Shown: positions 12,284 through 29,453 of the stretch, piece by piece | How positions within the stretch are numbered: the stretch's first letter is position 1 | Layout: each line of letters begins with the position of its first letter | Assembly (NCBI GenBank): GCA_963711835.1 | Contig: CAVQFQ010000017.1 | Span: 448,001-512,000, forward strand | Reading direction: 5' to 3' | From: an uncultured delta proteobacterium | GTDB taxonomy: Bacteria > Desulfobacterota > RBG-13-43-22 | DNA length: 64,000 nt | Program-made: the position numbers and the translations under genes | The notes under the pieces: model-generated | Database searches by the model: none | Seen by the model: the letters and a program-made list of their open reading frames with translations, nothing else | What the model was told of the DNA's origin: nothing

Positions 12284-13718
12284 TTACTGAGACGCCACCT
12301 TAATTTGGTCGCTCCCCCCGCCTAATACAGTGTAGAGCCTCACTTGGTTGGCGAGCTTGGCCAAGCGAAGCGCAACCAGCCCCTGCTGTGCCGCATAGAG
12401 AGAACGCAGGGCATCCAGGACGCCCAGGTAGCTGTCAATTCCCCTGGCATAACGTGCAGTGGAAAGGCGGTAGGTTTTAGCAGTCGCCTCTACCAGGGAT
12501 TGTTGCGCCGACAACTGCTGCTCCACCGTGCCCCAAACGGCCAGGGCATCGGCCACTTCCCTGAAGGCCGTCTGAATCGCCTTCTGGTATTGGGCCAGGG
12601 CGATTTCCTTTTCTACTTTCGTGGCCTCCAGGGCCGACCACACCCGGGCATCAAAAATCGGTATTTTGATCTGTGGGGCGAAACTCCAGGTATCCGAACC
12701 GGAGTTAAAAAGCCCGGATAGCTGGCTGCTGGCGGTTCCGACCGAGGCGGTCAGCGATATCCGGGGAAAGAGCGCCGCCCTGGCCGCTCCGATATTGGCG
12801 TTGGCCGCCTTGAGCCGGTGTTCCCCGGCCATAATATCCGGTCGATGAAGGAGCACCTCGGAGGAGAGGCCGGCGGATATTTCTGGAAGAGGCTTAATGC
12901 TGCTCAGGTCCGCCGGCACGAGTCTCACTTGGCCTCGGGAACGAGGAGCCGATCAGGAGGTTCAGGGCGTTTTCATCCTGCGCCGCCAGTTGCCTAAAGC
13001 GGGCCATGTCTCCCCGAGCGGTGTCCACTTGCGTTTGAGCCCGATTGAGATCCAGTTCGGAGGCGAGCCCGACTTCATGGCGTCGTTTGATCAATTCATA
13101 GGCGCCTTTTTGCGTTTCCCAGGTGATTTCCGCCAGCTTGAGATTTTCCCTGTCCGCAGCCAGGGTCAGATAGGCGTTGGCCACCGCGGATACCAGCAGG
13201 ATCTGCGTGCTGCGGCGGGCCTGATCCGTGGCCAGGAACTCTTCCAGCGCCCGATCCTTCAGGCTGCGGATGCGGCCGAAGAAATCGATCTCCCAGGAAC
13301 TGAGGCCCAGATTGACGCTGTACTGCTCCGCGGTCATCGATTGCCCGGTGGTCGAAAGATCAGCCGGCACACGCTGTTTGCTCCCATTGGCGGTCGCATC
13401 GATCATAGGGAACAGTTCAGCCCGTTGGATGCCGTATAAGGCCCGAGCCCGTTCGACATTTAAGGCGGCCAGCCGTAGATCTCGGTTGTTGTCCAGGGCC
13501 GTCGCGATCACTTTTTGCAGGCGATCATCGGTGAAAAATTCCCGCCAGGGTAACTCGTTTGCCGTGGGTGTGCCAGACCGCGCGGGTGTTTCTTTGTAGG
13601 CCGCACCGGTGGGCCAACCGGCAGGGACCGGGGCTTCCGGCCTGGTGTATCGGGGGGCCAGGGTGCAGCCGGTCAGAAAGACGAACATTCCAATCGTTAG
13701 AAGGAGGTTTCTATTCAT
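12284..13718 (-). CDS. OprM/NodT-family RND outer membrane lipoprotein (frameshift near 12930)
   Basis: LTGC lipobox, [39 protein letters not shown]; split over two ORFs. Confidence 0.88.
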
Positions 13719-16700
13719 GGGATTGATCCCCTGATGGATTGATTTCCGCCATCTTAGCCGCTTTCCGCTTTCTGTGCTTGCCAAAGGTCTTCTCGATCAC
13801 CACAAAAAAAAGCGGTACAAATAAGGTTACCAGGAAGGTGGCCGTAATCACTCCCCCAAGCACGGCGGTGCCGATGGCCTTTTGCGCGCCTGCGCCCGCC
13901 CCGCTGGCAAAAGCCAGGGGCAGAACCCCAAATCCGAAGGCCAGTGAGGTCATAATGATGGGACGCATCCTCAGTTTCGAGGCTTCCATTGTCGCTTCGA
14001 TCAGGTCCTCCCCTTCTTCCACCCGTGCCTTGGCAAACTGGACGATCAGGATGGCGTTCTTGGTGGTCAGGCCTAAAGTGGTCAACAGACCAAGCTGGAA
14101 ATAGACATCATTGGGCAACCCCCGAAGCGATGAGGCGATCACGCCCCCGATGACCCCCAGGGGCAGGCCCAACAGGATCGAAATGGGGATGGGCCAGCTC
14201 TCATACAGGGCCGCCAGGCACAGAAAGATCACCAGAATGGAAAAGGCGTAAAGGGGAGCGGCCTGGGCACCGGACTGCCGCTCCTGGTAGGAAAGCCCGG
14301 TCCAGTCAAAGCCGATCCCTTGTGGTAACTTCCTGACAAACCCCTCCATGGCCTGCATCGCTTCACCAGAGCTTCTCCCCGGCGCCGCCTCACCCACGAT
14401 GTTCAGGGAAGGAAAGCCATTGAAGCGCTCCAGTTTCGGAGAGCCGGAAGTCCAGTGCCCAGAGGCAAAAGAGGCGAAGGGGACCATCTTGCCCGTGTTG
14501 TTGCGCAGATAGATTTTTTCCAGATCCCCGGGCAACATGCGGTAGGGAGCGTCGGCCTGGACATAGACCCTCTTGACGCGGCCGCCTTGAATGAAGTCGT
14601 TGATATAGGCGCTGCCGAAGGCCGCCGAGATCGTGTTGTGGATCGAGGTGATGGGCACTCCCAAGGCCCCGGCCTTCTCCCAATCCACGTCAATCCGGTA
14701 TTCAGGGACATCTTCGAGACCGTTGGGCCGGACCTTGGTCAATACCGGGTCCTTTGCCGCCAGGCCGAGAAGCTGGTTGCGGGCTGCCATCAGGTTCCCG
14801 TGGCCCAGACCGCCGCGGTCCAGCAACTGAAAATCAAAACCCTTGGCCTGGCCCAGTTCCACCACCGCTGGCGGCGCGAAGGCAAATACCATGGCGTTGC
14901 GGATCTTGGAAAACTCCCCCATGGCCCTTCCGGCCACGGCGCCAACCTTCAGCTCAGGCCGGTTGCGGAGATCCCAATCCTTGAGCTTGACGAAGGCCAG
15001 GCCCGCGTTCTGGCCCCTGCCGGAAAAGCCTACGCCGGAAACCGTCATGAGGGCTTCGACCGCGTTCTTCTCGTGCCCCAGGAAATGATCCTGGACTCTC
15101 TTCATGACCTTGTCGGTTTGCTCCAGGGTCGAGTTCGCCGGAAGCATGGCCTGAACCATAAGGATTCCCTGGTCTTCATCCGGGAGATAGGCGGTAGGCA
15201 TCCGTTTAAAGAGGAATCCCATCGCCGCCACGATCAGAAGAAATATTACCACGTAGCGGATCTTTTTAGAGAGGGACTGGCCCACAAGTTGTAGATACCG
15301 GTCTCTGGCTCGAAAAAAGATGCGCTCAAACCAGCGGAAAAACGGTCGCAGAAACCAGATCCCTCCTTCCGCCGGCTCGTGCCCCTGGGGCACCGGCTTG
15401 AGAAAGGAGGCGCATAAGACCGGCGTCAGGACCAGGGCCACCACCACCGAAAGAAGCATGGAGGCTATGATGGTCACGGAGAACTGACGGTAGATGACAC
15501 CAGTGGAACCGCTGAAAAAGGCCATAGGCCCGAAGACAGCCGAGAGCACCAGCCCGATGCCGATCAAGGCACTGGTGATCTGGTCCATGGACTTGCGGGT
15601 GGCCTCCTTGGGAGAAAGTCCTTCCTCGCTCATGATTCTTGCTACATTCTCCACCACCACGATGGCGTCGTCCACCAGCAGGCCGATAGCCAACACCATG
15701 GCGAACATAGTCAGCATGTTGATGGAGAAACCGAAAAGCCCCAGCACTGCGAAGGTTCCCAGGATGACCACCGGCACGGCGATGGTCGGGATCAAGGTGG
15801 CCCGCATGTTTCCCAGGAACAGATACATGACCAGGAACACCAGCAGGATCGCCTCGAGCAGGGTCTTGACCACCTCCTTGATGGCCACCTTGACGAAGGG
15901 CGTGGTGTCGTAGGGATAAACGATCTTCATACCGGCGGGGAAGAAATGGCTCATCTCTTCCAACTTGGTTCTAACGGCATCGGCCGTATCCAGGGCATTG
16001 GCGCCGGCCGCCTGACGGATGGCCAGAGCGGCGGAGGGCCGGCCGTTGTAATAGGCTTGGATATCGTAAAGTTCGGTCCCGAGTTCCGTTCGCCCCACAT
16101 CCTTGACCCGGACGATGGATCCATCCGGATTGGTGCGCAGCGGGATCGCGGCAAACTCCTCGGGCGTCTTGAGCAGGCTCTGGACAATGATGGCGGCATT
16201 CAGACGCTGGCCTTTGACCGCCGGCGCCCCGCCGAACTGCCCCGCGGACACCTCCACGTTGTAGGCCCGTAGCGCCGTGATGACGTCTTGAACCGTCATC
16301 TGGAAATCGGTCAGCCGGTCGGGGTTGAGCCAGACTCGCATGGCATACTGGCTGCCGAAGATCTCCACCTCACCCACACCCGGCACCCGCGAAAGCACCT
16401 TCTCGAGATTGGACTGGGCATAGTCCCGCAAATCATTCCCATCCATGCTCTCGTCTTCCGAGATCAGGCCGACGATCAACAGGTAGTTCCGGGTGGATTT
16501 GGCCACCTTGACGCCAGAGCGCTGCACCACCTCCGGCAGGCTGGCCATGGCGAGCTGGAGCTTGTTCTGAACCTGGGCCCAGGCCAGGTCCGGATCGGTC
16601 CCTGGGGCAAAGGTCAGCTCGACGCGGGAAGAACCGGCCGAATCACTGGTCGCCGACAAATACAACATCTTGTCGAATCCGGTCATCTTCTGTTCGATGA

Positions 16701-16893
16701 TCTGCGTCACACTGTTCTCAACGGTCTCCGCCGATGCTCCCGGATAAAAGGAGGTAATGGCAATGGATGGAGGGGCGATGGGAGGATACTGCGAGATGGG
16801 CAGATTGTAGATGGCCAAGCCGCCCCCCACCATCAAGATAATGGCGATGACCCAGGCAAAAACCGGACGGTCAAGAAAAAATCGCGATAACAT
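13711..16893 (-). CDS. RND efflux permease, HAE1 (AcrB/MexB family)
   Basis: [45 protein letters not shown]. Confidence 0.97.
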
Positions 16894-16905
16894 AACGCGT
16901 CTCCG

Positions 16906-18117
16906 TCAGTTTGATTTTGGGGCCGGCTGGCCCGTCCTATCAGGCACAGCCCCACCCGTTCCAGTCTCCTTAAAAGGGCCCACCTTTACGGAAGCGCCCG
17001 GCCGCACTTTTTGAAGGCCCTCGACGATCACCTGATCGCCGGGTGTCAGGCCGGAGGTGACCAGCCACTGGTCCTTGATGGCCCGGTCCAGGCCGAGCAT
17101 CCGTTGTCCAACCTTGCCCGCGTTGTCCACAATCAGGGCCACGGGATTCCCCTTGGGATCGCGTGACACAGCCTGCTGGGGAATCAGGATGGCCTGCTCA
17201 TTGACGCCCTCCTTCACCACCGCCCGGACGAACATGCCCGGCAGGAGAATCCGTTGCGGATTGGGAAAGACCACCCGCAGGGTGACCGCCCCGGTGGACT
17301 GATCGACCGTGACATCGCGAAACTGAAGGGTCCCTTCCCGGGGATAGGCTGTGTTATCTTCCAGAATAAGTTTGACCTTTTTCTGGTTTTTCCCATCCTG
17401 GTTCAGGCGGCCGCCTTCCAGTCGCTGCTTCAATCGCAACAGCTCGGAGGTGGATTGGGGAACATCCACGTATATGGGGTCAAGTTGTTGAATCGTCGCC
17501 AGGGGAGAGGGTTGATGCGCCGTCACCAGCGCCCCCTCCGTCACATTGGATTTTCCGATAAGACCGGTGACGGGGGCGATGATGCTGGCGTATCCCAGAT
17601 TGATGCGGGCCGACTCCAACGTTGCTTTCCCAACCTGGATATCGGCTTCAGCCTGTTTCAGAGCGGCGGCGGCATCATCAACGTCCTGCTGACTGACCGC
17701 CTTATCAAGGATCAATTCTCTTAAACGTTCGGCCCTCAACCGGGTCGCCGGCAGATTGGCCTCGGCCCTGCTGAGGACGGCTTTGGCATTGTCAAGGGCC
17801 GCCTGAAAGGGGGCGGGATCGATTTGATAAAGCACTTGACCGGCCTTGACTTCCGAACCTTCGGTAAAGAGGCGTTTGAGTATGAGACCGTTGACCTGGG
17901 GGCGTATTTCCGCCACCCGATAAGCCGATGTGCGGCCCGGCAGTTCGGTGGTCAGCACGATGGACTGCCGGGCTGCCTTGACCGTGGCCACCTCCGGGAT
18001 TGGGGGCGGAGGGGTTGGGGGTTTGCGTTCGCACCCGACCAGGAAGAGGCCAATGAAGGCAGCCGCCAGAGCCAGACCACCAACTTGTAATTCAGCGATA
18101 TTTTTAAGAAGTTGCAT
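16906..18117 (-). CDS. RND periplasmic adaptor (AcrA/MexA family)
   Basis: ELPGRTSAYRVAEIRPQVNG, LLPGMFVRA. Confidence 0.95.
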   Translation of the reverse strand: MQLLKNIAELQVGGLALAAAFIGLFLVGCERKPPTPPPPIPEVATVKAARQSIVLTTELPGRTSAYRVAEIRPQVNGLILKRLFTEGSEVKAGQVLYQIDPAPFQAALDNAKAVLSRAEANLPATRLRAERLRELILDKAVSQQDVDDAAAALKQAEADIQVGKATLESARINLGYASIIAPVTGLIGKSNVTEGALVTAHQPSPLATIQQLDPIYVDVPQSTSELLRLKQRLEGGRLNQDGKNQKKVKLILEDNTAYPREGTLQFRDVTVDQSTGAVTLRVVFPNPQRILLPGMFVRAVVKEGVNEQAILIPQQAVSRDPKGNPVALIVDNAGKVGQRMLGLDRAIKDQWLVTSGLTPGDQVIVEGLQKVRPGASVKVGPFKETGTGGAVPDRTGQPAPKSN

Positions 18118-18179
18118 TAAAAAAACCTCCAGGAAAGAATGATGGGATCGGAGCGATTCCGCAACGTGTCGAAATTGAT

Positions 18180-18803
18180 TTACTGCGCCACCAATCCATT
18201 GAAGATAATGTTCAGGATCACGTCAGGATCCTCAGGGTAAGGATGCCGATCAGGCGAATCCAACCACAGAAATAGAAAGGTCCTGGTGATGCTGTCAAGG
18301 GCGACCGCTAAAAGGTAGGGGTCTGCGATTTTTTTGAATCGTTTTTTTTTAATCCCGCTGGCAAAAACGGCCGCGAGCGTTTGGATGTTCTTTTTCTGTA
18401 TCTCACGGATTTCGGCATCAAGCCCCGCCCTGAGATTGAAGCTCGTTACCTGGGCCTCAACTAAAAAGAGGCGAATCGCTGCAAGGTTGGCCCGAAAAAC
18501 TTCGCCTTTGACCTTGACATAGTTTCGGAGTTTTCCGATTTCGTCATCCCTGGCTTTAATCGCTTCCTGGAGCGCTGCTTGGAATTTATCGGCCAGATCG
18601 AGAATAAGTGTTTGATAGAGATCTTCTTTATTTTTAAAGAATTTGTAGAGCGTGCCGATGGCGAATTCGGACTCCTGGGCGATCTCGCTCATCGAGACGT
18701 TGTAGTATCCCTTTTCCGAGAAAAGATCGAGCGCGGCGGCCAGCATCTCTTGGCGTTGCCTGACCTTTTCTCTTTCCCGCCTGGGAAGTTTCCCCTCTTC
18801 CAT
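18180..18803 (-). CDS. TetR/AcrR family regulator
   Basis: N-terminal HTH ...IGTLYKFFKNKEDL; heads the RND operon. Confidence 0.93.
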   Translation of the reverse strand: MEEGKLPRREREKVRQRQEMLAAALDLFSEKGYYNVSMSEIAQESEFAIGTLYKFFKNKEDLYQTLILDLADKFQAALQEAIKARDDEIGKLRNYVKVKGEVFRANLAAIRLFLVEAQVTSFNLRAGLDAEIREIQKKNIQTLAAVFASGIKKKRFKKIADPYLLAVALDSITRTFLFLWLDSPDRHPYPEDPDVILNIIFNGLVAQ

Positions 18804-19017: not shown

Positions 19018-20262
19018 CTATGGGTTCTTTACCCGACAAGCCAAAGGAGAAGTTCTTATCGGCAGACAGGCATTGCAGGAAATACACTCGGCTTTGTCTG
19101 GTCCCTCCCCGGATCGCCAGAGGACGGGGAGGTCCGGCTGGCGGATAAGGGGCCTGGACATTGAGACGAAATCCGCCGCCTTGGCACTCAAGACTTCTTC
19201 TATTTTACTGAACGACCGTAAACCTCCCACTAAGATGACCGCCGCATTCGTCTTTTCTTTGAGTGCTTTCGCACCCGGGAGGAAATAGGCTTCTTGATCA
19301 TAGGTTTTAATGCCGGTCCGAGATTCGGCCAAGAGCACAGGAGGCCACCCCAGTTCCTCTTTCGGGCGGGTGCAAGATTCCCACATGCCTCCGCTGGCCT
19401 CAATGGCCGCGAACCCTACCTCGCCTAAAATCTTTCCCACCTGGACCGCTTCGTTGAGGTCGGGGCCCCCAGGAAGGAAGTCAGTCGTGTTGAATTTAAT
19501 CAGAATGGGGAAACGCTCGCCGACCTTTTTTCTGGCTCGCTGGTAGATGTCCTTGACGATTCTGGTCCGATTCTCAGTGGATCCGCCATATTGATCCTCG
19601 CGCTGATTAGTCCGCGGTGACAAGAAGGAACTCAGAAGCCAGCCGTGAGCAGCATGAAGCTGAACCCCGTCGAAACCAGCCTCTTGGGCCCGCCGTGCGC
19701 CTTCGGCAAAGGCCTCGATGATTTCCTCAATTTCGTCTTGGGTCAACGCCCTCGGCGTCCGATCGAAGGTTGCGTCGTAGACCGCGGAAGGGGCGGTTGG
19801 CTCTACCTCATGGATGGCTTCCGCAGGGGGTGCCATGAGCTCAGGATGCTTTTGAATATAGGCGACCATGGCCGGCGGAAGCAGGGGGAATATTTTAGCA
19901 GTGTTTTCTCGATGAATGACCTGTCTTCCGGGATGATTCAATTGGATCATCACCCTGCAGTCCGGCGCAGCTTCCCGCACTGCCTGTGGGATTTTTTTGA
20001 GACTCTGAATAAAAGAATCGTTATCCGCTCGCATTAAGAGATGGGGCGCCAGCGCCTTGGAGTATACGCCGGCAGCGCCGGTGATTATCAGACCCACACC
20101 CCCTTTGGACAAAGTGCGATAAAGGTCCACTAAAAAATCCGATACCTCACCTTTGCTTGTGGCTGCATTCTCGTACGTGGCCGAACGGACTAAACGGTTT
20201 TTGATTTCGAGATGTCCAATGCGTGCCGGATTAAAGACTATCGAATCTTCCCTGATAGCCAT
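19018..20262 (-). CDS. NADH:flavin oxidoreductase (old yellow enzyme family)
   Basis: KNRLVRSAT, AGFDGVQLHAAHGWLLSSFLSP..N.R.D.YGGS, C-terminal CISCNAC. Confidence 0.92.
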   Translation of the reverse strand: MAIREDSIVFNPARIGHLEIKNRLVRSATYENAATSKGEVSDFLVDLYRTLSKGGVGLIITGAAGVYSKALAPHLLMRADNDSFIQSLKKIPQAVREAAPDCRVMIQLNHPGRQVIHRENTAKIFPLLPPAMVAYIQKHPELMAPPAEAIHEVEPTAPSAVYDATFDRTPRALTQDEIEEIIEAFAEGARRAQEAGFDGVQLHAAHGWLLSSFLSPRTNQREDQYGGSTENRTRIVKDIYQRARKKVGERFPILIKFNTTDFLPGGPDLNEAVQVGKILGEVGFAAIEASGGMWESCTRPKEELGWPPVLLAESRTGIKTYDQEAYFLPGAKALKEKTNAAVILVGGLRSFSKIEEVLSAKAADFVSMSRPLIRQPDLPVLWRSGEGPDKAECISCNACLPIRTSPLACRVKNP

Positions 20263-20433
20263 ATCTCCTCCTTTGCAGTTATCATCTTTTGGGAAAAAGA
20301 ACTCCTTGATATCCCTTAGAAATATTTCTCGTCGACCCCAATTACCCCCTTCACCTACTACTCTTTACTAAGGGCTCTCCTCTGTTCCCGTTAACCTGTA
20401 GATAGCCATAACGGTGGGTCTTTTTAGCCATCC

Positions 20434-21219
20434 TTATGGAAGGAATATTTGTCGTACGTACAGGGGAATGACGCCGACCGCTATAAGCTGCTCAGTCCCG
20501 TCGAACAGCTTGCTCAGTTCAGGCACGGCCACACGGAATTGGTAATTTTTCACCCGGCCTATACCGGCGGGGACGCTCTTGACGATGTCCGTAGCCGTAT
20601 CTGTACGGTAGATACGGAAAAAGCTCGGCTCCGCAGATGAATATACTTTTTGTTCCGACCTAGCCCGTAAAGGGAGGGCCTGCTGGTATTGCACCCGCAG
20701 CTCAATGACCCCCCCGCGAGTATCTCGTACTTCCCAGAAGTCTTCGCCTACCCCAGATTCAAGGTTAGCCATTTTATACGTCTGCTCCCTTCGGATGGTG
20801 GCCCCGACATATTTTTTATATGGGCCCGGGACATTAGTTATGTCGGCCATGAAACCACCGATGATTACGGTGGCCATCTCACCGGTTTGCGTATGCTTTG
20901 CGGGAACTGCGAACGGCACTACCCGATTGACTCCCCCCATATCCGGCTTTCCTTGAGCATCCTGGACGAGAAACGAATCAATAAAGAGGACGAATAAGTT
21001 GGCCTCCTTGAGCGGACCTCCTGGGATCGGCGTTACCTGCCATGGAGGCGGCACCAGCTTCTGAATTTCCGCTTGCCCCACACGCAGGGCTACCATGAGT
21101 CTGGTTTCCACGGTCGATTGGACAAGGGTCTCTGCCCCCGACTGAACGGTAGACCCAAAAACCCAGGCCGAGGCCATTAAAATACCGATGAGAACCCACA
21201 TTGACTTTTTTGTGGCCAT
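20434..21219 (-). CDS. Hypothetical exported protein
   Basis: 261-aa ORF with signal peptide and AAGGAGG RBS. Confidence 0.7.
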   Translation of the reverse strand: MATKKSMWVLIGILMASAWVFGSTVQSGAETLVQSTVETRLMVALRVGQAEIQKLVPPPWQVTPIPGGPLKEANLFVLFIDSFLVQDAQGKPDMGGVNRVVPFAVPAKHTQTGEMATVIIGGFMADITNVPGPYKKYVGATIRREQTYKMANLESGVGEDFWEVRDTRGGVIELRVQYQQALPLRARSEQKVYSSAEPSFFRIYRTDTATDIVKSVPAGIGRVKNYQFRVAVPELSKLFDGTEQLIAVGVIPLYVRQIFLP

Positions 21220-21440
21220 GGTCGTTTCCTCCTTTTTAGTTTTAAAAAATTAGTTGGGTTTTATAAAGAAAGAGCAATTCAAGAAAGGCAGAAAAGAAAG
21301 GCTCCGAAGAGAACCTCTTAACCGCATTGCTCCTGTTCAGGGATGGGGCTCCTTGGTCCCAAAAGGGAGGGGAGAGGGCAGGTAAGGAAACCCTCGCTGC
21401 CCCAACGATCTCCTTTAGATTTAATCCTTATGAATCCTGA

Positions 21441-22332
21441 TCAGATGAGCGTGTCTTCCTGCCAGCCGAGTTTGATAATCTCGATCCGGTTCAGATCGCT
21501 CGGGCCGAGCCGGTATTTCTTGTCGGCCACGACAATGTGAATGGGCTGGACATCCAATTCCCTGTCTTCCCCGAAAAAGGCGACCCTTTTCCTCCGCAGG
21601 AGTTCGGCCCCGACGGCATCCACGGAAACCGGATCCAACCCTACGATCAAGCCCTGATAGGGCCAGAGGTAGCGCCGGTCGATGGAATGCGGGCCTCTCC
21701 CATAAAACTGCGGGGTTAGGGCCACCAGGATGTTCAACCGGGTCTTTGCCTTTTACCAGCGGAAGGGTCCATATCTTTCCCAGATCGGCACAGGCCTCGC
21801 CGTGGTAGGCCGATGGGGAGGGGACGAACATGATGTAATTTTTGAGGCAGGTTCCGACCCCTGACCAGTGGTGGGTTCGCACCGAGCGCACATTCACCAA
21901 GGCCGTGGATTTCAGAAATATGGGGTTGTTGAGTACACCGCGATCATCCACGGCCAGGGCGGTATCAGAGATCCCGACCTCGAGGAGTCGACGGCGGATG
22001 GCCTCCTCCATTTCTACCGGGGTGGCCAGGTGACGCCAGACGTTGCTCTTGATGCCCACCACATCCGACTTTTTAAACAGCCTTTGCCAGGCCTGCAACG
22101 GTGTTTTCTCTCCGACAAGGGCCTGGACGGCCTCATCAAGCATGGTCTGAAGGATGGTGCCGTTCGGCTTGCCCTCCGGACCCAGCACCTTGGAATTACG
22201 GATAAGAACAACCCTGGCCCGGTCCTCCACACCCGCTTCGGACCGGGTCGATGCGCCGAGGCCCATAGTCATTACTAACCCGGCAGTTCCCCGTAAAAAA
22301 TCACGTCGAGTTACGACAAATCGTTTTTTCAT
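21441..22332 (-). CDS. DUF362-like Tat-exported protein (frameshift near 21750)
   Basis: TRRDFL Tat motif, VGIKSN, RTHHWSGVGTCLKN, DPVSVDAVG; split over two ORFs. Confidence 0.75.
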
Positions 22333-23357
22333 AAACACTTCCCCTTCAATTTCGCTAAACTGGCTTGCACCAATTCCTCCGCATCGGACTCCGAAGGGGC
22401 ACCAAAGACAATAACCACGAGCCTTCGGTACCGTTCGGCCCGGGTCCATGAGCCGTCTTCGGCCAGGACGGAGCCGCCCTGACCGGCCTCAGGCAGATAG
22501 GCGGAGCGGAAACCTTTAAGGGCAGAACGCGCCCTGGCCTCGGTGGGATAGCTTGCCAGCAGGAGGTGGATTTTCTTCTTTTCCCTGACATATCGGGCCA
22601 GAACCGCCTGCATGTCGTTCCCCAGACGGAGTATATTTTGGTGGGAGATGAAGAAGCATCGGTTTAACAGGACATGGCTGCGAATGAAACAAATGCGATC
22701 TGCCGGAGGAAACATAGGCAGATCGGGCAGGCAGCGAAGCAGTTGCGGAAGCTCACCGGTTTCTTTTATTCCGGCCGCCATGGCCCGCCCCAGGCTAAGT
22801 ACCGCCCCTTCCATCTCCTTTCCGGTCCCCTCTCCGAGGATGGCGGCAAAAAAACGCCCTTTCCAGAAGCGTAGAAGACTGCCTCCGAATTCCGATCCCT
22901 GGCCTATCCCGGCCTCGGGATCCTGGTGCTCCAAAGAAAAGACTCCGAAGGCATCTTCGGAAGAGGCCATTTTGTAAACTTCGGCTACGATATCCGGTTG
23001 GCCGGGTTTGAGATAACGGCGAACAGACACCCGCTGGACACGGTAGGCCAGGTAAACTTCGGCTGCTCCATCGATGTATTGGAACAGGGTCTTAGGGGTG
23101 TAGGCCTTATCCTCATTGTCCCAGGTCCAGCCGGCTATCTCCGATGGCCAGGCCAGGCGGTCGGTCATTTTACCCTCCTTAGCGCATGATCCAAGGCGTG
23201 GTGCGGGCAACCAGGAAGTAAACCAGAGAAAGAGTACCCCCAGGGCGAGCACAACCTTTGCGGCTCTACGGGTTTCAGGATTCAGGCCAACCTTCTTGGG
23301 TTGTCTCATAATCATAACTAATATTTCAGCCCCATTGTGGAGGGGGAAGTTGTTCAC
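22329..23357 (-). CDS. DUF6599-like exported protein (start uncertain)
   Basis: LFQYIDGAAEVYLAY, EVYKMASSEDAFGVFS, FWKGRFF; ATGA overlap with the DUF362-like gene. Confidence 0.7.
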   Translation of the reverse strand: MNNFPLHNGAEILVMIMRQPKKVGLNPETRRAAKVVLALGVLFLWFTSWLPAPRLGSCAKEGKMTDRLAWPSEIAGWTWDNEDKAYTPKTLFQYIDGAAEVYLAYRVQRVSVRRYLKPGQPDIVAEVYKMASSEDAFGVFSLEHQDPEAGIGQGSEFGGSLLRFWKGRFFAAILGEGTGKEMEGAVLSLGRAMAAGIKETGELPQLLRCLPDLPMFPPADRICFIRSHVLLNRCFFISHQNILRLGNDMQAVLARYVREKKKIHLLLASYPTEARARSALKGFRSAYLPEAGQGGSVLAEDGSWTRAERYRRLVVIVFGAPSESDAEELVQASLAKLKGKCL

Positions 23358-23639
23358 CCCATTCAGTTACTTTAACGCCATAACAAAAAATATGGGGCTT
23401 AACTAATCAAAAGGCCTTCTAATAAAAAGCGCCAGGTTGTTAAGGCAGGTCCGACTCATTCAAACAATGTTTGGTCGGTAGGCCGGTGTTTGGGATCCAC
23501 AGCGCCTGTTCGTCGTAATAGTCCTCGATCATGCTTTCAATATCCTCCGCTCTGAGCGGTCATAGCGGGGCGTCAGGCCGACGACCGACTTCCCGCTGCC
23601 CCTGGATGGCTCTCGGGCAAGGGCGCCTAACCGCCCGGA

Positions 23640-23876
23640 TCAAAGGTTCAACAAGGCATTGATGCGTGCCTTGTCAAACCCGATGACCACTTCGCCGTCT
23701 ACCACCAGGGCGGGTGCGGAGCGAACGCCCAAGCTGAACAGTTCATCGCGAGCCTCTTCGTCGATCATCAGATCTTTTCTCACGAATTTCACCCCTTTGC
23801 CGGTCAGATACTCTGACAGTGCGGTACAGGGGCCTCAGAAGGGTTGCGAATACACGGTGATTTGCCGCTCTCCCAT
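23640..23876 (-). CDS. NrdH/glutaredoxin-like selenoprotein (UGPC motif)
   Basis: MGERQITVYSQPF-TGA-GPCTALSEYL...GVRSAPALVVDGEVVIGFDK...; TGA at 23837-23835 occupies the first Cys of CxxC; AGAGG RBS; downstream hairpin. Confidence 0.88.
23791..23833 (-). promoter_or_regulatory. Putative bacterial SECIS element
   Basis: GUCAGA-GUA-UCUGAC apical stem with loop 23 nt after UGA, plus GCCCCU/AGGGGU lower stem. Confidence 0.65.
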
Positions 23877-24060
23877 ATCGTTTCCTCTTGGTTTCTTCCT
23901 TAGTGCCTCGATTCGCAAATACGGTAACGTATTTTTCTGGGCCGATTGCGATAACTGCTCCCTCAGCACTTAGTCCTGAGGGAATAAATTCGAGATCGAA
24001 TTTATGAATCGATGAACTTAGCGTTAGATCACTTCACTCACTTTAGTCACTTTCCTGGGC

Positions 24061-24951
24061 CTACTGCAATTGCTTGGCCTTCTGCTCCCGTGCCTTCCGC
24101 AGCAGTTCCTGCCGGTACGCCTCCGCATCCTCAGAAATAAAGGGCTGCTCGTCGGTCATGAATTTTTCCATCCAGGCACGGCTTTCGGACCACGCATACG
24201 GCAGATCAACGATGACCCCCGGCCTGTCGGCCTCTTCCAGCAGCTTCAACCCGGCACGCAGGACGTTGCGCTGATTTTCCGGGTCATGGGGCCGCCCCGC
24301 CGGGTTGCCCAGGGGATAGTTGAGAAAAACCTGTCGCGGGTTGCCGGCGCTGGCGGCGATATCCCGTGCGTTGGTGTAGGTGACAGTGGAGATGCCTCCC
24401 GCCTCCAGAACACGGGCAACCAGACTCACGGTCTGATGGCAGATGGGTCAGACGGGCGTCAGCAGAGCCACGTCCACGTGGTCCTCCCTGCACTGCCGGA
24501 GGATTTCCGGTCCGTCCACCTCCGTTGTCTTTCGGTGGCTGTAATTCGGTAGGGTCCGGTAGTAGTTTCTGCTCAGGCTTCCGAATACCCCTTCCCTGAG
24601 GAACTCCCGCATCCGCGTGGTGGGAAAAAAGGCGTTGACGTCGTTCATGTCCGTCTGGTAGCGGTCGTGATCTTGGCTGGTGGACAGGATGCGGGCGGCG
24701 GGCCAGTCGCTGGGCGCCGTGAATACCTCCAACTCATTGGTGCCGATCATTCGGGGCTCTTCCAATGGAAGGCCTTCCTCATTCAACAGGAGGAATGAGG
24801 CTGTGGTCACCAGCGTCACCCGGCATTTCGAGAGCGGCTTCTTCAGCCGCGTGAAGGGGATGTCCTCGTTATAAGCGTAGTTGTAGGTTTTATCGTATCC
24901 TAGACCGCGGTAGTATTCATGGGTTTTCTCGATATAGCGAATATAGTCCAT
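24061..24951 (-). CDS. PrdB/GrdB-like (glycine/betaine/sarcosine/D-proline reductase component B family) selenoprotein
   Basis: ORFs 24448-24951 and 24061-24429 are in frame, joined by TGA (24450-24448): VDVALLTPV-U-PICHQTVSLVARVLEAGGIST. Confidence 0.88.
24419..24437 (-). promoter_or_regulatory. Putative bacterial SECIS element
   Basis: AUCAGAC-CGUGA-GUCUGGU hairpin; loop starts 17 nt after UGA and contains GU. Confidence 0.6.
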
Positions 24952-25200
24952 CTTGGGCCTCCCTGGCGAACAAAGCGCCTCGTATCCCCGGCACCCGCGC
25001 ACACCGCTTGTTTGATAAGAATTTCCTTTTTGATGGAAAGAGTATAAGGAAAAAAAGGCACGGTCAAGGAGAAAAATAAGGCAAAAGGCAATAGGCCACA
25101 TGGGGTCTTCTGAAGAAAAAGGGACCTTGAATATCTGGACTTTAACAATAGAAGGGGATAAGGGAAAAAAGAAGGGCTGATTTCCAAAATTTGGATCCCG

Positions 25201-25235
25201 CTCCGAATTTCGTGCTTCGAATTTCGGATTTTGGA
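25201..25235. repeat. Half copy of the TTCGAA-rich palindromic repeat (family of 42473-42607)
   Basis: CGAATTTCGTGCTTCGAATTTCGGATTT is the near-exact reverse complement of AAATCCGAATTTCGAAGCACGAAATCCG at 42473. Confidence 0.7.
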
Positions 25236-25285
25236 TCTTAATGGCATGAATACAACCGGGTTCTTAAATTATTTCCGTTAAAATT

Positions 25286-26497
25286 TTAAAGAACCCCAAC
25301 AACGGCTTCATAGACTTCATCAACCGGAATGGCCTGGAGACACTTGTTATCTCGGCAAGGGGAATTACGGTGATTGTAGGCCGTCAAACAGGGCGAGCAG
25401 GAAAAGTTGGAATAAAAGACATGGGTTTGGGGGCTTAGGGGCCGGTATAATATGGGGGTTTCCGGACCCATGAAGACAAAGTTTCTGATGGGTGTCATGG
25501 AGGCGAAATGGGCCGGACCGCTGTCGTTGGTGATCAGCACCTGAGCGATTGAAAACAAATCCATCAGCTCGGGAAAGGTGGTTTGCCCGGCAAAATTGAG
25601 GCACCGGGGGTGGTTCACGGCCCGGCGGACCTGCTCATTGATCTCCCAGTCGGCCTTGGCCCCCATCAGAATGAGGTAATGGTCCGGGTTCTGCAAGAGG
25701 CGATCGGCCAAGGCGATGTAATTTTCCAGGGGCCAGGCCCGAATGGGGATCTCCCCGCCGCTGGGATTCAGAACCAGTATCTTTTTGTCTTCGCCGATCT
25801 CGGGATTGAACCCCTTTAGTTTTTGCCAGAGATTTTTTTTGCCCTCTTTGGAAGCCGTATAAGCAGCGGTTTCGATGTCGCCGTCCGGAACCGACCGATC
25901 CATGGTCGGAACATCTTTGGCAGGCAGCTTCAAGACCTCGACCATGGAAAGGAAGGTCTTGCTCATGTGCTGCTGAAAGTTATACTGCACCTTATGGGTA
26001 TGGAAGTTTCCGCGGTATAGCCCTTCCAGGCCATACCTGTAAAATCCCACCCGAAGCAACGCCCCGCTGAAAAAAGTCAGGATGGCGGTCACCCGGGTAA
26101 ACAATTCCAGATCAAAGACCACCTCGATTTTTTCCCGCCGCATCCTAAAAATGACCCTGACCACATCCGCTATAAAGGCGAGAAAAGATTTTTCAGAGAT
26201 AGTCAAGACCTTCTCTTCAGGTATAAGGCCCAGGATATCGACACTGGCCCGGTTTTTTTCAAAGATCAGAAAAAACAGCTCGGCTTGGGGATAGGACCTC
26301 TTCACAACCTTCATAGCCGGATAGGCCAGGATGGCGCTGCCCATTTCGGACAGTTCCAGAAAAAGGAATTTTTTGGGCGCTTTGGAAAAATTTTTAGGGG
26401 GCGAAATCAGTTTCAAGACATAATGGAGGCCGGTCAAAACCCGGCAGACCGGCACCCCGATCCAGTAATCAATCTTTCTGACCAGGTCCACCTTCAT
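25286..26497 (-). CDS. Glycosyltransferase family 9 (heptosyltransferase-like)
   Basis: LSEMGSAIL, LITNDSGPAHFA, CSPC...C...CL; starts at ATG overlapping the upstream stop. Confidence 0.88.
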   Translation of the reverse strand: MKVDLVRKIDYWIGVPVCRVLTGLHYVLKLISPPKNFSKAPKKFLFLELSEMGSAILAYPAMKVVKRSYPQAELFFLIFEKNRASVDILGLIPEEKVLTISEKSFLAFIADVVRVIFRMRREKIEVVFDLELFTRVTAILTFFSGALLRVGFYRYGLEGLYRGNFHTHKVQYNFQQHMSKTFLSMVEVLKLPAKDVPTMDRSVPDGDIETAAYTASKEGKKNLWQKLKGFNPEIGEDKKILVLNPSGGEIPIRAWPLENYIALADRLLQNPDHYLILMGAKADWEINEQVRRAVNHPRCLNFAGQTTFPELMDLFSIAQVLITNDSGPAHFASMTPIRNFVFMGPETPILYRPLSPQTHVFYSNFSCSPCLTAYNHRNSPCRDNKCLQAIPVDEVYEAVVGVL

Positions 26498-27441
26498 GGC
26501 CGCAACCGCCTCTGGAATAGCCGAAGGAATCCATAGCCCAGCAGGACCGCAAACCAGATTGTACAGACCCGAATCAGGATGGTGGCCGCGGCGGCCTGGG
26601 CCTTGGGAACCTGGATCAGGAGGAGCAGACCGGTCATGCTGGCTTCGGCGGCGCCGATACCTCCGGGAAGCATGCTCACTGCCCCGGCCAGGGCGGCGAA
26701 GGCGTAAATAAAGGTGGCCTTCGCCAAAGGAACGGGCCAACCCAATCCATAAAAAACCAGAGCGAAGGCCAGGCATTCAAAGAACCAGGCCAATAACCCG
26801 ATGACCGAGGCCCAGAAGAGGATCTTGAAGCCCATCAGGTCATGAAGGGTATGAAAGGCCTCAGGTATGGACCCCTTAAGTTTGCTGCCCCAGGGAATCC
26901 TTTCCAGCAGCCTCAGGCAAAACCGAAAAGTCCCTTCGGAGATAAAAGGAAGCAGGCCGGCGATCAATACAGTCGTTCCCAGCCAAAGGATTTTGGCCCC
27001 AAAGGCCAAGGAGGCGCTCCCGACCAGCACCAGCACATAGACTGCCAGGAGGTCGGTAAAGCGTTCGGCCAGCACCACCGGTGCTGACCTGGAAATAGGC
27101 ACCTCATAGCGTTCCTTGAGCAAAACCGATTTAATCAATTCGCCCATCTTTCCCGGGGTAACGGTCATCGCCAGGCCGCTCATAAAGATAGTAAAGCTCT
27201 CCCGCCGGGGCAGAGAAATCCCCACCCGATTCAGGTACAATCCCCAGCGCCAGAAGCGGCTGAGGTAGTTGAGGAAGGCCAGGGCCAGGATGGCCGGCAG
27301 GGTGACATACGAAAATCCCTCAAAAGCCCCGACCACCAAGGGCCAGTTCCCATAAAGGGAAAGGCCTAAAAACACAGCCAGGCCCAAACCTAAAAAAAGA
27401 AAGAATTTTTTTGTGAGAAACGAAAACCGGGCTTCAGCCAT
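26494..27441 (-). CDS. Lysylphosphatidylglycerol synthase TM-domain (flippase-like) protein
   Basis: RFWRW, TPGKMGELIK, ERFTDL, PGGIGAAE. Confidence 0.88.
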   Translation of the reverse strand: MAEARFSFLTKKFFLFLGLGLAVFLGLSLYGNWPLVVGAFEGFSYVTLPAILALAFLNYLSRFWRWGLYLNRVGISLPRRESFTIFMSGLAMTVTPGKMGELIKSVLLKERYEVPISRSAPVVLAERFTDLLAVYVLVLVGSASLAFGAKILWLGTTVLIAGLLPFISEGTFRFCLRLLERIPWGSKLKGSIPEAFHTLHDLMGFKILFWASVIGLLAWFFECLAFALVFYGLGWPVPLAKATFIYAFAALAGAVSMLPGGIGAAEASMTGLLLLIQVPKAQAAAATILIRVCTIWFAVLLGYGFLRLFQRRLRP

Positions 27442-27451
27442 GAGCAGATGC

Positions 27452-28366
27452 CTAATGATAGAGGATCAGCATAACAACCAAGGCCCAGCCCAGAACGGTA
27501 AAAAGCAGAGGGCGGTCGGTTAATAAGGTTTCTTCCGGCCGGCCGCCTTCTATTTTTTGATGGACCACATAAAGGTAGCGGAAGATCCCATAGAGAACAA
27601 AGGGAAAGGTAAAGATCAGGTTCCGGGTCTGGAATTTGGCTATGGTTTCTTCCGAGATGGTGTACAAGGCATAGCTCATGACTGTAGTCGCTGTAACAAC
27701 CCCCATCATCTGATCCAACAGATAGGGGGAGTATTCCTTAAGGATCGAACGGTGCTCGACCGCCCCTTCCTTCAAAAAAACCAATTCGTGGCGCCTCTTA
27801 GCCATGGCCAGAAAAAGAGAAAGGAGGGTGGTGCAGATAAAGAGCCAGGGGGAGAGGTGAACGCCGATCACCAAACCCCCGGCCACTACCCTGATGACGA
27901 ACCCGGCGGCAATGGAAAAAATGTCCAGGATGACCTGGTGTTTCAGGAAAAAGGTGTAAAGTATTTGGAGCAGCAGGTAGGCCCCCATGGAAAGCCCAAA
28001 TTCCCTTGAGAGCCAAAAACCGATGACCAGGCTTCCAATCAGGGTTAAACAAGCCACCCATCCCGCCAAGGGCGGGCTTAATTTTCCTGAGGCCAGGGGA
28101 CGGTTTTTCTTGACCGGATGGAGGCGGTCTTCATTGCGGTCCTTGAGGTCATTGATGACATAGACCGAACCGGTCAGGAGACAGAAGAGGATAAAGGCCT
28201 CAATGGTTTTCCGGAAAAGAGGCCCGTCAAACAAATGCTGTGAAAACAAAAGCGGGGCGAAGAGGGCGCCGTTTTTAATCCACTGCTTGGGACGGAAGGA
28301 AAAGACCAGATTTTTAAAGAGAGGGAAAAAGGATTGTAAGGGGGCGGCCATCGCCATCATCTCCAA
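27452..28366 (-). CDS. UbiA family decaprenyl-phosphate phosphoribosyltransferase-like protein
   Basis: RPKQWIKN, YVINDLKD..EDRLHPVK.NRPLASG, KRRHEL, YGIFRY. Confidence 0.9.
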   Translation of the reverse strand: MEMMAMAAPLQSFFPLFKNLVFSFRPKQWIKNGALFAPLLFSQHLFDGPLFRKTIEAFILFCLLTGSVYVINDLKDRNEDRLHPVKKNRPLASGKLSPPLAGWVACLTLIGSLVIGFWLSREFGLSMGAYLLLQILYTFFLKHQVILDIFSIAAGFVIRVVAGGLVIGVHLSPWLFICTTLLSLFLAMAKRRHELVFLKEGAVEHRSILKEYSPYLLDQMMGVVTATTVMSYALYTISEETIAKFQTRNLIFTFPFVLYGIFRYLYVVHQKIEGGRPEETLLTDRPLLFTVLGWALVVMLILYH

Positions 28367-28571
28367 CGGAATACTTTAATAAGCCAAGAAGTGGAATAAA
28401 AAATAAGTACCAAACTATAGGCGATAATCGGGATATTCTCAACAAAATTTCCATTTTTCTTCCTATCCCGAAAAATTCGGATCGGCTTGGGTTGCCGGTA
28501 GGCTGCACGGAGTTGGGCAAGGTCTAAAAAAGGTTGACTTATCTGTTGTTTTGCATCAAAAGAAGCTGATC

Positions 28572-29453
28572 ATGAAGCCCATCGGTGCCCACATGTCCAT
28601 AGCCGGCGGCCTGGCTAAGGCCCTTCAGCGGATCCGGATCGTCGGGGGAGAATGTCTCCAGATCTTTGTAAAACCTAACCTTCAGTGGGAGGCCGGGGAT
28701 TTAACCCTGGATGAGGTGATTCGGTTCAAGGAGGAACAGCAGCGGGCCCAAATTGCGCCGGTGGTGGCCCATGCCTCTTACCTGTTGAACCTGGCCTCAC
28801 CGGACAGCCTCTTGCGGAAAAAATCCATTTTAACCCTGGCCCTGGAACTGGTCCGCTCGGCCAGGTTGGGCATCCCCTACCTGATTATTCACCCCGGCAG
28901 CCATCTGGGGACCGGAGAGGGGAAGGGAATCAAGCGGATTGCCCAGGGGGTGGACCAGGCCTTCAACCAGGCCGGGGTCGAGACCACGATGATTCTTTTG
29001 GAAACAACCGCTGGGTCGGGCAGCCAATTAGGCTCCCGTCTGGAGCATCTCAGGGATATCCTGGCCCAAAGCCGGACCTCTCAACGGCTGGGGGTCTGTG
29101 TCGATACCAGCCACGTCTTTGCCGCCGGGTATGATATAGCGAACCTGAAGGGCTATGAGGATTTTTTCGCCGGTTTCGGGAAGCAGATCGGGTTGGGTCT
29201 TCTGAAGGTTATTCACGCCAACGATTCCAAAGTACACTTAGGTGCTAAGGTGGACCGTCATCAGCAGATCGGTCTGGGCCACCTGGGGACCAAAACCTTT
29301 CAGCGCCTTTTAGCCGATCCCCGGTTGGACGGACGGCCCTTTATCCTGGAAACCCCAAAAGGGAAAAATGGGGAAACCGATTGGGATGTGATCAACATCG
29401 CCCTGTTAAAAAAATTTAGAAAGAAACCAAGCCCCCTTTTAAGAAAAACATAA
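28572..29453 (+). CDS. nfo: Endonuclease IV
   Basis: IGAHMSIAGG, HPGSH, LETTAG, DTSHVFAAGY, HANDSK, DRH, ILETP. Confidence 0.95.
   Translation: MKPIGAHMSIAGGLAKALQRIRIVGGECLQIFVKPNLQWEAGDLTLDEVIRFKEEQQRAQIAPVVAHASYLLNLASPDSLLRKKSILTLALELVRSARLGIPYLIIHPGSHLGTGEGKGIKRIAQGVDQAFNQAGVETTMILLETTAGSGSQLGSRLEHLRDILAQSRTSQRLGVCVDTSHVFAAGYDIANLKGYEDFFAGFGKQIGLGLLKVIHANDSKVHLGAKVDRHQQIGLGHLGTKTFQRLLADPRLDGRPFILETPKGKNGETDWDVINIALLKKFRKKPSPLLRKT

Follow-up and report, generated by a model that had tools for sequence, protein, structure and literature searches.

Two adjacent genes on the minus strand of a 64,000-nucleotide (nt) stretch of DNA (the window, meaning the whole stretch that was analysed) from an uncultured delta proteobacterium (GTDB lineage Bacteria; Desulfobacterota; RBG-13-43-22; GenBank assembly GCA_963711835.1, contig CAVQFQ010000017.1, positions 448,001 to 512,000) are read here as a pair of selenoproteins. 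In the reading we favour, with a probability of about 60%, the first gene (gene 1) encodes a stand-alone PrdB-like enzyme with selenocysteine (Sec, U) at residue 168 and cysteine at residue 171, and the second (gene 2) encodes a redoxin (Sec14 and Cys17) that likely re-reduces it. The source genome comprises 28 contigs and 3.9 Mb and is 89% complete. A first-pass annotation of the window, made from its letters alone, had reported two co-oriented neighbouring genes, each with an in-frame TGA in a U-x-x-C motif, and its coordinates for both proved exact. The features of the pair are as follows.

24061..24951, minus strand: PrdB-like selenoprotein gene, 296 amino acids (aa) with TGA read as U; start ATG 24951..24949, stop TAG 24063..24061.
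24958..24963, minus strand: Shine-Dalgarno-like GGGAGG, 6 nt 5' of the PrdB-like ATG, read from the sequence.
24448..24450, minus strand: UGA codon, predicted Sec168, in the motif T-P-V-U-P-I-C-H-Q-T; the sole recoded codon of the PrdB-like gene.
24419..24437, minus strand: hairpin of the PrdB-like gene resembling a selenocysteine insertion sequence (SECIS), 7-bp stem AUCAGAC/GUCUGGU, loop CGUGA; the loop begins 17 nt past the UGA.
23877..24060, minus strand: spacer between both genes, 183 nt; 8-221 nt at other loci.
23883..23888, minus strand: Shine-Dalgarno-like AGAGGA 5' of the glutaredoxin-like gene, read from the sequence.
23640..23876, minus strand: glutaredoxin-like (YruB/NrdH-like) selenoprotein gene, 78 aa; start ATG 23876..23874, stop TGA 23642..23640.
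23835..23837, minus strand: UGA codon, predicted Sec14, in the motif P-F-U-G-P-C, from the translation and a 35-sequence alignment.
23791..23833, minus strand: SECIS-like nested hairpin of the glutaredoxin-like gene, inner hairpin GUCAGA-GUA-UCUGAC; apical loop GUA at 23809..23811.

Under translation table 11, gene 1 is split into the open reading frames (ORFs) 24448..25101 and 24061..24429, while gene 2 is represented by a 50-aa tail (23640..23792), much as the first-pass annotation had described an ORF track that splits one gene and misses the other. Reading both UGAs as Sec repairs the two mis-called genes.

Both UGAs are predicted, from comparison with relatives, to be conserved Sec codons followed by SECIS hairpins. 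The machinery for Sec insertion, on which the first-pass annotation had made its proposal depend, is present in the genome, where selA, selB, selD and tRNA-Sec all score above their cut-offs and selD itself carries a TGA. Homologues likewise bear Sec or Cys at the two positions. Among related loci in species-representative genomes, the best 80 of at least 594 were taken as the basis for every count per 80 given here, and the codon in the U168 column is TGA in 69, TGC or TGT in 10 and unresolved in one, a pattern well beyond what chance would give. The database homologues tell the same story from the protein side: about 100 of the best 120 inspected (of 887) are exactly 167-168 aa long, that is, cut at the UGA, and 11 of 12 aligned full-length homologues have Cys in that column, within an invariant C-P-x-C-H-Q-T. 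One homologue (P0003) has W there, probably a TGA read as Trp. At the position of U14, the 36 partner redoxin genes carry TGA in 10 cases and a Cys codon in 26.

In both genes a hairpin lies closely 3' of the UGA with a G in its apical loop, the arrangement by which the bSECISearch literature recognises a bacterial SECIS, and the loops begin 17 nt (gene 1) and 23 nt (gene 2) past the UGA, matching the 17-23 nt given in the first-pass annotation. The stem of the PrdB-like hairpin in relatives, ACCAGAC/GUCUGGU, is complete over its 7 bp in 59 of 70 Sec forms (the window included) and in none of 10 Cys forms, and the loop CGUGA is identical in 62 of the 70. Compensatory changes convert C-G to U-A in 11 sequences and G-C to A-U in two. 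Furthermore, the Ser codon inside the hairpin is AGT in 62 of the 70 Sec forms and 0 of the 10 Cys forms, so that the hairpin after U168 appears to be held by synonymous codon choice in the Sec forms only. The evidence for this hairpin is comparative, because the window's own stem, which contains one G-U pair, is not above shuffles in stability when folded alone (z +0.39). The redoxin hairpin has a minimum free energy of -20.8 kcal/mol (z -2.12; 5 of 200 shuffles equally stable); it recurs in eight Desulfobacterales-type Sec forms, and two Methylomirabilota Sec forms carry another hairpin. An Rfam search of positions 20000-29000, at an E-value threshold of up to 10, found no relevant family. 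Contigs from three RNA-library runs span the gene 1 UGA unchanged, one of them identical over 158 nt; these are no proof of transcription and count as weak support for readthrough, as DNA can occur in such libraries.

The product of gene 1 is assigned by profile comparison to the PrdB/GrdB superfamily, nearest to the PrdB subunit of D-proline reductase yet distinct from it. It matches the PrdB profile TIGR04483 (Clostridium sticklandii type) with an E-value of 3.6e-31 over profile positions 20-234 of 238 and, like PrdB, holds its predicted Sec in U-x-x-C, so that the homology covers nearly the whole profile; we do not call it PrdB because it scores 108.4 bits against a cut-off of 300. It is also about 55 residues longer than PrdB, has no adjacent PrdA gene and has a glutaredoxin-like gene as its neighbour. 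Matches to the other members of the superfamily are confined to their C-terminal part: the protein covers only positions 275-345 of 347 in PF07355 GRDB (25.9 bits; gathering score 22) and reaches 35-45 bits with the GrdB, GrdF and GrdH profiles, whose cut-offs are 602-800. With TIGR01918 'various_sel_PB' it scores 36.2 bits against a threshold of 65.45. GrdB-type proteins, by comparison, are about 430 aa long, need a GrdE-type partner and feed GrdA and GrdC.

The start Met of the PrdB-like protein coincides with that of its homologues, and an alignment of 65 PrdB-like sequences contains about 30 invariant columns. The AlphaFold model built from this alignment is confident (predicted local distance difference test, pLDDT, 91.5; predicted template modelling score, pTM, 0.90) and places Sec168 at the opening of helix 169-184, after strand 161-165. 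The invariant columns and the confident fold suggest an enzyme rather than a scaffold. A PDB sequence search with the PrdB-like profile gave no meaningful match (the best was a designed protein, E 0.033), Foldseek returned no match of the model to the PDB at E <=0.001, and a wide structure search with VIA-align recovered only generic Rossmann-like folds (LacI-type and short-chain dehydrogenase/reductase) at Z 7-9, which is background level.

The product of gene 2 is placed by the same kind of comparison among glutaredoxin-fold proteins, closest to the YruB and NrdH types. Residues 7-65 match PF00462 at 48.1 bits (gathering score 22.9), and scores fall below the curated cut-offs for both types (TIGR02196 YruB, 70 against 88.55 bits; TIGR02194 NrdH, 44.3 against 85.75). 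The TGA at the end of the gene is predicted to be a true stop, because 11 of 35 homologous genes close after the same L-L-x-L with TAG or TAA instead (TGA 24, TAG 8, TAA 3). Readthrough past it would leave the frame open for about 38 further codons and yields no U-x-x-stop. The UXX-star glutaredoxin-like selenoprotein family (NF041212) was considered as an identity for gene 2 and rejected, with 35.8 bits against a cut-off of 66 and no U-x-x-stop.

The PrdB-like protein is an orphan with respect to the Stickland reductases. The first-pass annotation had pointed out that the pyruvoyl proproteins (PrdA and GrdE, PF09338) and GrdA (PF04723) are lacking from the window, and neither family has a match there. 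For the genome as a whole its suggestion of a search gave a divided answer, as Stickland-type genes do occur elsewhere: PF09338 matches on contig C11 only, and GrdB clusters lie on C17 and C11. The first of these (C17:33-2881, L017), about 470 kb from the pair, consists of a canonical 457-aa GrdB(U), then a thioredoxin and then a GrdC-like gene; the second (C11:1-2400, L014) is a GrdE/GrdB-like cluster that can be read only with several frame changes. PF04723 was not found in the genome; a GrdA gene perhaps lies beyond the contig ends.

These clusters raise the question of whether gene 1 might be a genuine Stickland-type B subunit that uses a GrdE/PrdA-like proprotein and Grd components encoded elsewhere in the genome. 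The grdB(U)-trx-grdC cluster and the PF09338 match beside a GrdB-like frame on C11 would supply such components, and PrdB is the best NCBIfam match of the gene 1 product. On the other hand, both clusters include a B-type selenoprotein of their own, the PrdB score amounts to one third of the cut-off, and the neighbour families common to the 80 loci include no PF09338-type gene. PF09338 is also found in none of five chromosome-level genomes that carry the orphan PrdB-like family, in a search that did match the window's genome. Because of this last result the family is predicted to work without a pyruvoyl proprotein, and we regard a borrowed Stickland role for gene 1 as very unlikely.

The partnership with the redoxin is conserved across distant lineages, which bears out the neighbourhood check proposed in the first-pass annotation. 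In 36 of the 80 loci a redoxin homologue (10 Sec, 26 Cys) lies directly downstream of the PrdB-like gene, on the same strand and at a distance of 8-221 nt; these loci belong to Desulfobacterota, Alpha- and Betaproteobacteria (including Bordetella bronchiseptica), Methylomirabilota and Acidimicrobiia. Any other neighbour family is common to at most nine of the 80. Enzyme and redoxin both carry Sec at nine of these loci, as they do in the window, and both carry Cys at seven; a Sec enzyme is paired with a Cys redoxin at 19, a Cys enzyme with a Sec redoxin at none, and at one locus the enzyme column is unresolved. As the combination of Sec enzyme and Cys redoxin is the most frequent (19 of 35), the second Sec, in the redoxin, is apparently optional.

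Within the window's order, 16 of 21 genomes have at least one PrdB-like gene, every match has the TGA, and up to four paralogues occur per genome. The copies, from genomes G006-G025, fall into three identity bands, at 81-96%, about 40% and about 31-34%; one of them (G008:C4) contains three TGAs and may be broken. Three orthologues of at least 92% identity keep the Sec-redoxin at the same spacing.

Several observations weigh against the pairing or leave its function less constrained. A redoxin neighbour of the enzyme gene was not found at 44 of the 80 loci nor, within 1.5 kb, at eight of 11 loci of the window's order (two orthologues of 81% identity and six paralogues of about 40%), so the partnership is not obligatory. 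The 183-nt spacer showed no conserved element when aligned with six relatives, and with a spacer of this length and little conservation the co-transcription of the window's pair is only putative. The flanking genes offer no clue to function and lack synteny in close relatives. No PrdB or GrdB structure emerged from the structure searches to anchor the active site. Finally, the path of the electrons from donor to acceptor and each step of catalysis would follow by analogy with the chemistry of PrdB/GrdB and of thioredoxin-fold redoxins.

On that analogy, the pair of PrdB-like enzyme and redoxin would work as a short cycle. The Sec168 selenolate would attack the substrate, and Cys171 would resolve the adduct to leave an intramolecular selenenylsulfide, which the U/C-x-x-C of the redoxin would then reduce. 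The redoxin in turn would be recycled, probably by thioredoxin reductase and NADPH and not by glutathione. This donor is expected because the genome has two TrxB genes above cut-off and no GshB above cut-off, and because the U-G-P-C of the redoxin is thioredoxin-like, resembling the C-G-P-C of thioredoxin. The Sec-to-Sec relay proposed in the first-pass annotation would be a plausible form of this cycle where both proteins carry Sec.

A known tandem offers a parallel for such a redoxin. In Clostridium (Alkaliphilus) oremlandii a Sec-glutaredoxin with a U-x-x-C motif is reported to re-reduce a Sec enzyme, Sec-MsrA (Kim et al. 2011, as cited in PMC13188914). The systems differ in that MsrA is unrelated to the PrdB-like protein, the window's redoxin is YruB/NrdH-like with U-G-P-C, the partnership here is putative, and the partner redoxins of most relatives are Cys forms. 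The tandem also lends some appeal to an alternative in which the pair is a thiol/selenol system of stress defence or repair, acting on oxidised small molecules or proteins in the manner of the Msr-glutaredoxin or peroxiredoxin types and not in catabolism. Both proteins do have U-x-x-C redox motifs, and metagenomes from the oxic surface ocean are rich in the family (the Global Ocean Sampling (GOS) data contain 235 Sec and 110 Cys sequences; PMC2398784). Yet in Pfam and NCBIfam scans the window proteins resembled none of the Msr, Prx and AhpD families, the 80 loci revealed no conserved regulator or stress gene beside the pair, and the numerous polar residues that are invariant at a distance from the U-x-x-C suggest a defined pocket for a small molecule. 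We consider a defence or repair role quite unlikely.

Two fusions raise the separate idea that the PrdB-like fold serves regulation and not catalysis, as a domain that senses redox state or a ligand. One protein (P0262) joins a divergent PrdB-like domain and a long C-terminal extension to an XRE-type helix-turn-helix, another (P0155) joins the domain to a Ser/Thr protein kinase domain, and the best structural matches of the model include LacI-family ligand-binding domains at Z 8-9. Both fusions are single representatives, however, P0155 lacks the first ~80 residues of the domain, and either could be an assembly chimera; moreover, Z values of 7-9 are reached by models without a real match, and the window protein has no DNA-binding or signalling domain. 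A sensory function is accordingly the least probable of the readings weighed here, and highly improbable in absolute terms.

For the PrdB-like enzyme with its redoxin, the most concrete lead to a substrate comes from fusions of another kind. All seven longer homologues (7/7) consist of an N-terminal acyl-CoA synthetase (PF00501 and PF13193) and a C-terminal PrdB-like domain in its Cys form, about 810 aa in total, and such fusions occur in separate 50%-identity clusters (P0134, P0132, P0135). The fusion appears to have been kept through much divergence, because P0135 and P0123 are collinear across the junction at only 43% identity. Similarly, genes for an acyl-CoA ligase, a family III CoA-transferase or an acyl-CoA dehydrogenase make up 14 of 111 genes within 400 nt of the pair, compared with 13 of 378 farther away in the same loci (odds ratio 4.05, one-sided Fisher p 6e-4), in a test that ignores relatedness even though three of the loci (L036, L043, L049) are near kin. 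In one locus of 81% identity (L024) a ligase gene lies 62 nt upstream of the PrdB-like gene on the same strand, and in three others (L088, L018, L019) Old Yellow Enzyme (OYE)- or FabK-like enoyl reductases adjoin it. Fusions and neighbours together point weakly to a CoA-activated carboxylic acid as the substrate class.

This lead would refine the favoured reading into one in which the enzyme reduces a CoA-activated (thioester) acid. The acyl-CoA would be made by a ligase or CoA-transferase; the PrdB-like protein, needing no pyruvoyl subunit, would use Stickland-type Se-C chemistry to take off a substituent adjacent to the thioester carbonyl, and the product would enter beta-oxidation-like steps. 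There is precedent for new substrates in the superfamily, which diversifies in this way among its Grd and Far members: a GrdB/GrdE-like operon is proposed to encode a fluoroacetate reductase, and its FarB/FarE candidate belongs with GrdB, GrdF and GrdH to the same superfamily, in which the Sec nucleophile acts on the carbon that neighbours a carboxyl-type group (PMC10838667).

The evidence for this refinement has its counterweights. The window itself has no acyl-CoA ligase, CoA-transferase or acyl-CoA dehydrogenase neighbours; any of the three families occurs within 4 kb in only 23 of the 80 loci, and all are common in Proteobacteria. The idea was derived from the same 80 loci that served for the test, and a class-level sample of 400 genomes held four PrdB-like carriers, too few to re-test the enrichment. 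The fusion genes have no adjacent redoxin: a metagenome scan with one of them (P0126) retrieved nine loci, none with a redoxin beside the fusion gene, and the ORF calls at these loci, taken alone and with no family-library scan, revealed no informative neighbour. The neighbouring acyl-CoA enzymes all score below every NCBIfam equivalog cut-off, and therefore no substrate can be named.

As a refinement the thioester reductase is tentative and on balance unlikely, and the CoA-thioester substrate taken by itself stays a doubtful prospect. A broader form of the idea, which we hold to be rather improbable, is that the orphan PrdB-like proteins constitute a pyruvoyl-independent branch of Stickland reductases, in which the thioester replaces the pyruvoyl imine in activating the carbon and a dedicated redoxin recycles the enzyme. 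If a CoA thioester were the substrate, Stickland-type selenium chemistry would extend to non-fermenting bacteria; if the thioester branch were real, reductive C-X cleavage would take place in the carboxylic-acid catabolism of non-fermenting, often aerobic, bacteria of soil and ocean. Whatever the substrate, both the conservation of the redoxin partner and the fusions to acyl-CoA synthetase offer concrete handles on it.

The family has probably been met before under another name. In the Sargasso Sea, the marine 'Proline reductase PrdB' with a U-x-x-C motif ranked third in abundance among the known selenoprotein families, with 42 sequences (Zhang, Fomenko & Gladyshev 2005, PMC1088965), and it was counted again in the GOS data (Zhang & Gladyshev 2008, PMC2398784). 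That family is likewise PF07355-like, has Cys homologues and is abundant outside the Stickland fermenters, and the loci related to the window's gene include many marine Alphaproteobacteria. Motif, Pfam family and taxa thus suggest that the window's family and the marine PrdB family are the same. In their passages on the family, the two surveys file it under proline reductase with no mention of a missing PrdA or of a redoxin neighbour, and a U-x-x-C glutaredoxin is listed in both marine selenoproteomes. The sections of recent reviews that deal with PrdB still treat it as D-proline reductase (PMC9312934, PMC13188914).

It follows that only part of the first-pass description of a hidden and uncharacterised system stands: the function is uncharacterised, and selenoprotein inventories have included both families since 2005 (PMC1088965, PMC2398784). 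In the Creative Commons-licensed main text of papers in PubMed Central and bioRxiv we found no paper that evidently describes the orphan subfamily, the redoxin that accompanies it or its fusion to a ligase, and the phrase 'PrdB-like' is also absent there. The link to acyl-CoA synthetase fusions and acyl-CoA neighbours seems new. A family that ranks among the commonest bacterial selenoproteins of ocean metagenomes still bears the label "proline reductase" although the partner subunit of that enzyme is missing, and as far as homology can tell this annotation is wrong for the orphan PrdB-like family.

The immediate surroundings of the pair are a family 9 glycosyltransferase gene upstream and a gene for a DUF6599 protein downstream. 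The window's flanking genes do not recur beside the pair in the 80 loci, except for distant OYE homologues in four of them (L088, L053, L061, L026). The OYE-family flavin oxidoreductase of the window lies at 19018-20262 on the minus strand, 3.4 kb downstream of the pair, and its homologues (36-38% identity) adjoin the PrdB-like gene or lie within 1.4 kb of it in L088 and L053. In four loci from marine Alphaproteobacteria that have no redoxin (L045, L047, L054, L056), an O-methyltransferase gene (PF00891) follows the PrdB-like gene on the same strand after 12-58 nt.

The intergenic spacer of the pair occurs only once in the genome. RNA-library contigs leave parts of the stretch uncovered; those from two sediment runs pile up on the spacer just upstream of the redoxin gene, with a high summed depth at 23878-23931 and loose ends on both sides, and one RNA-library contig omits 159 nt of it (23886-24046), which fits the relatives with short spacers. 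A scan for promoters and terminators gave no more sites than shuffled sequences, and none on the minus strand between both genes. Between the glycosyltransferase and PrdB-like genes lies a 25-nt element (25207-25231) that contains an inverted repeat (CCGAAATTCG...CGAAATTCGG); at least 14 further sites in the genome carry the element with 93-100% identity, and it may be a repeat of the repetitive extragenic palindromic (REP)-like or terminator-like kind. Farther downstream, positions 13711-18803 on the minus strand encode a TetR regulator, a membrane-fusion protein and a 1060-aa AcrB-type resistance-nodulation-division (RND) pump, an ordinary efflux operon.

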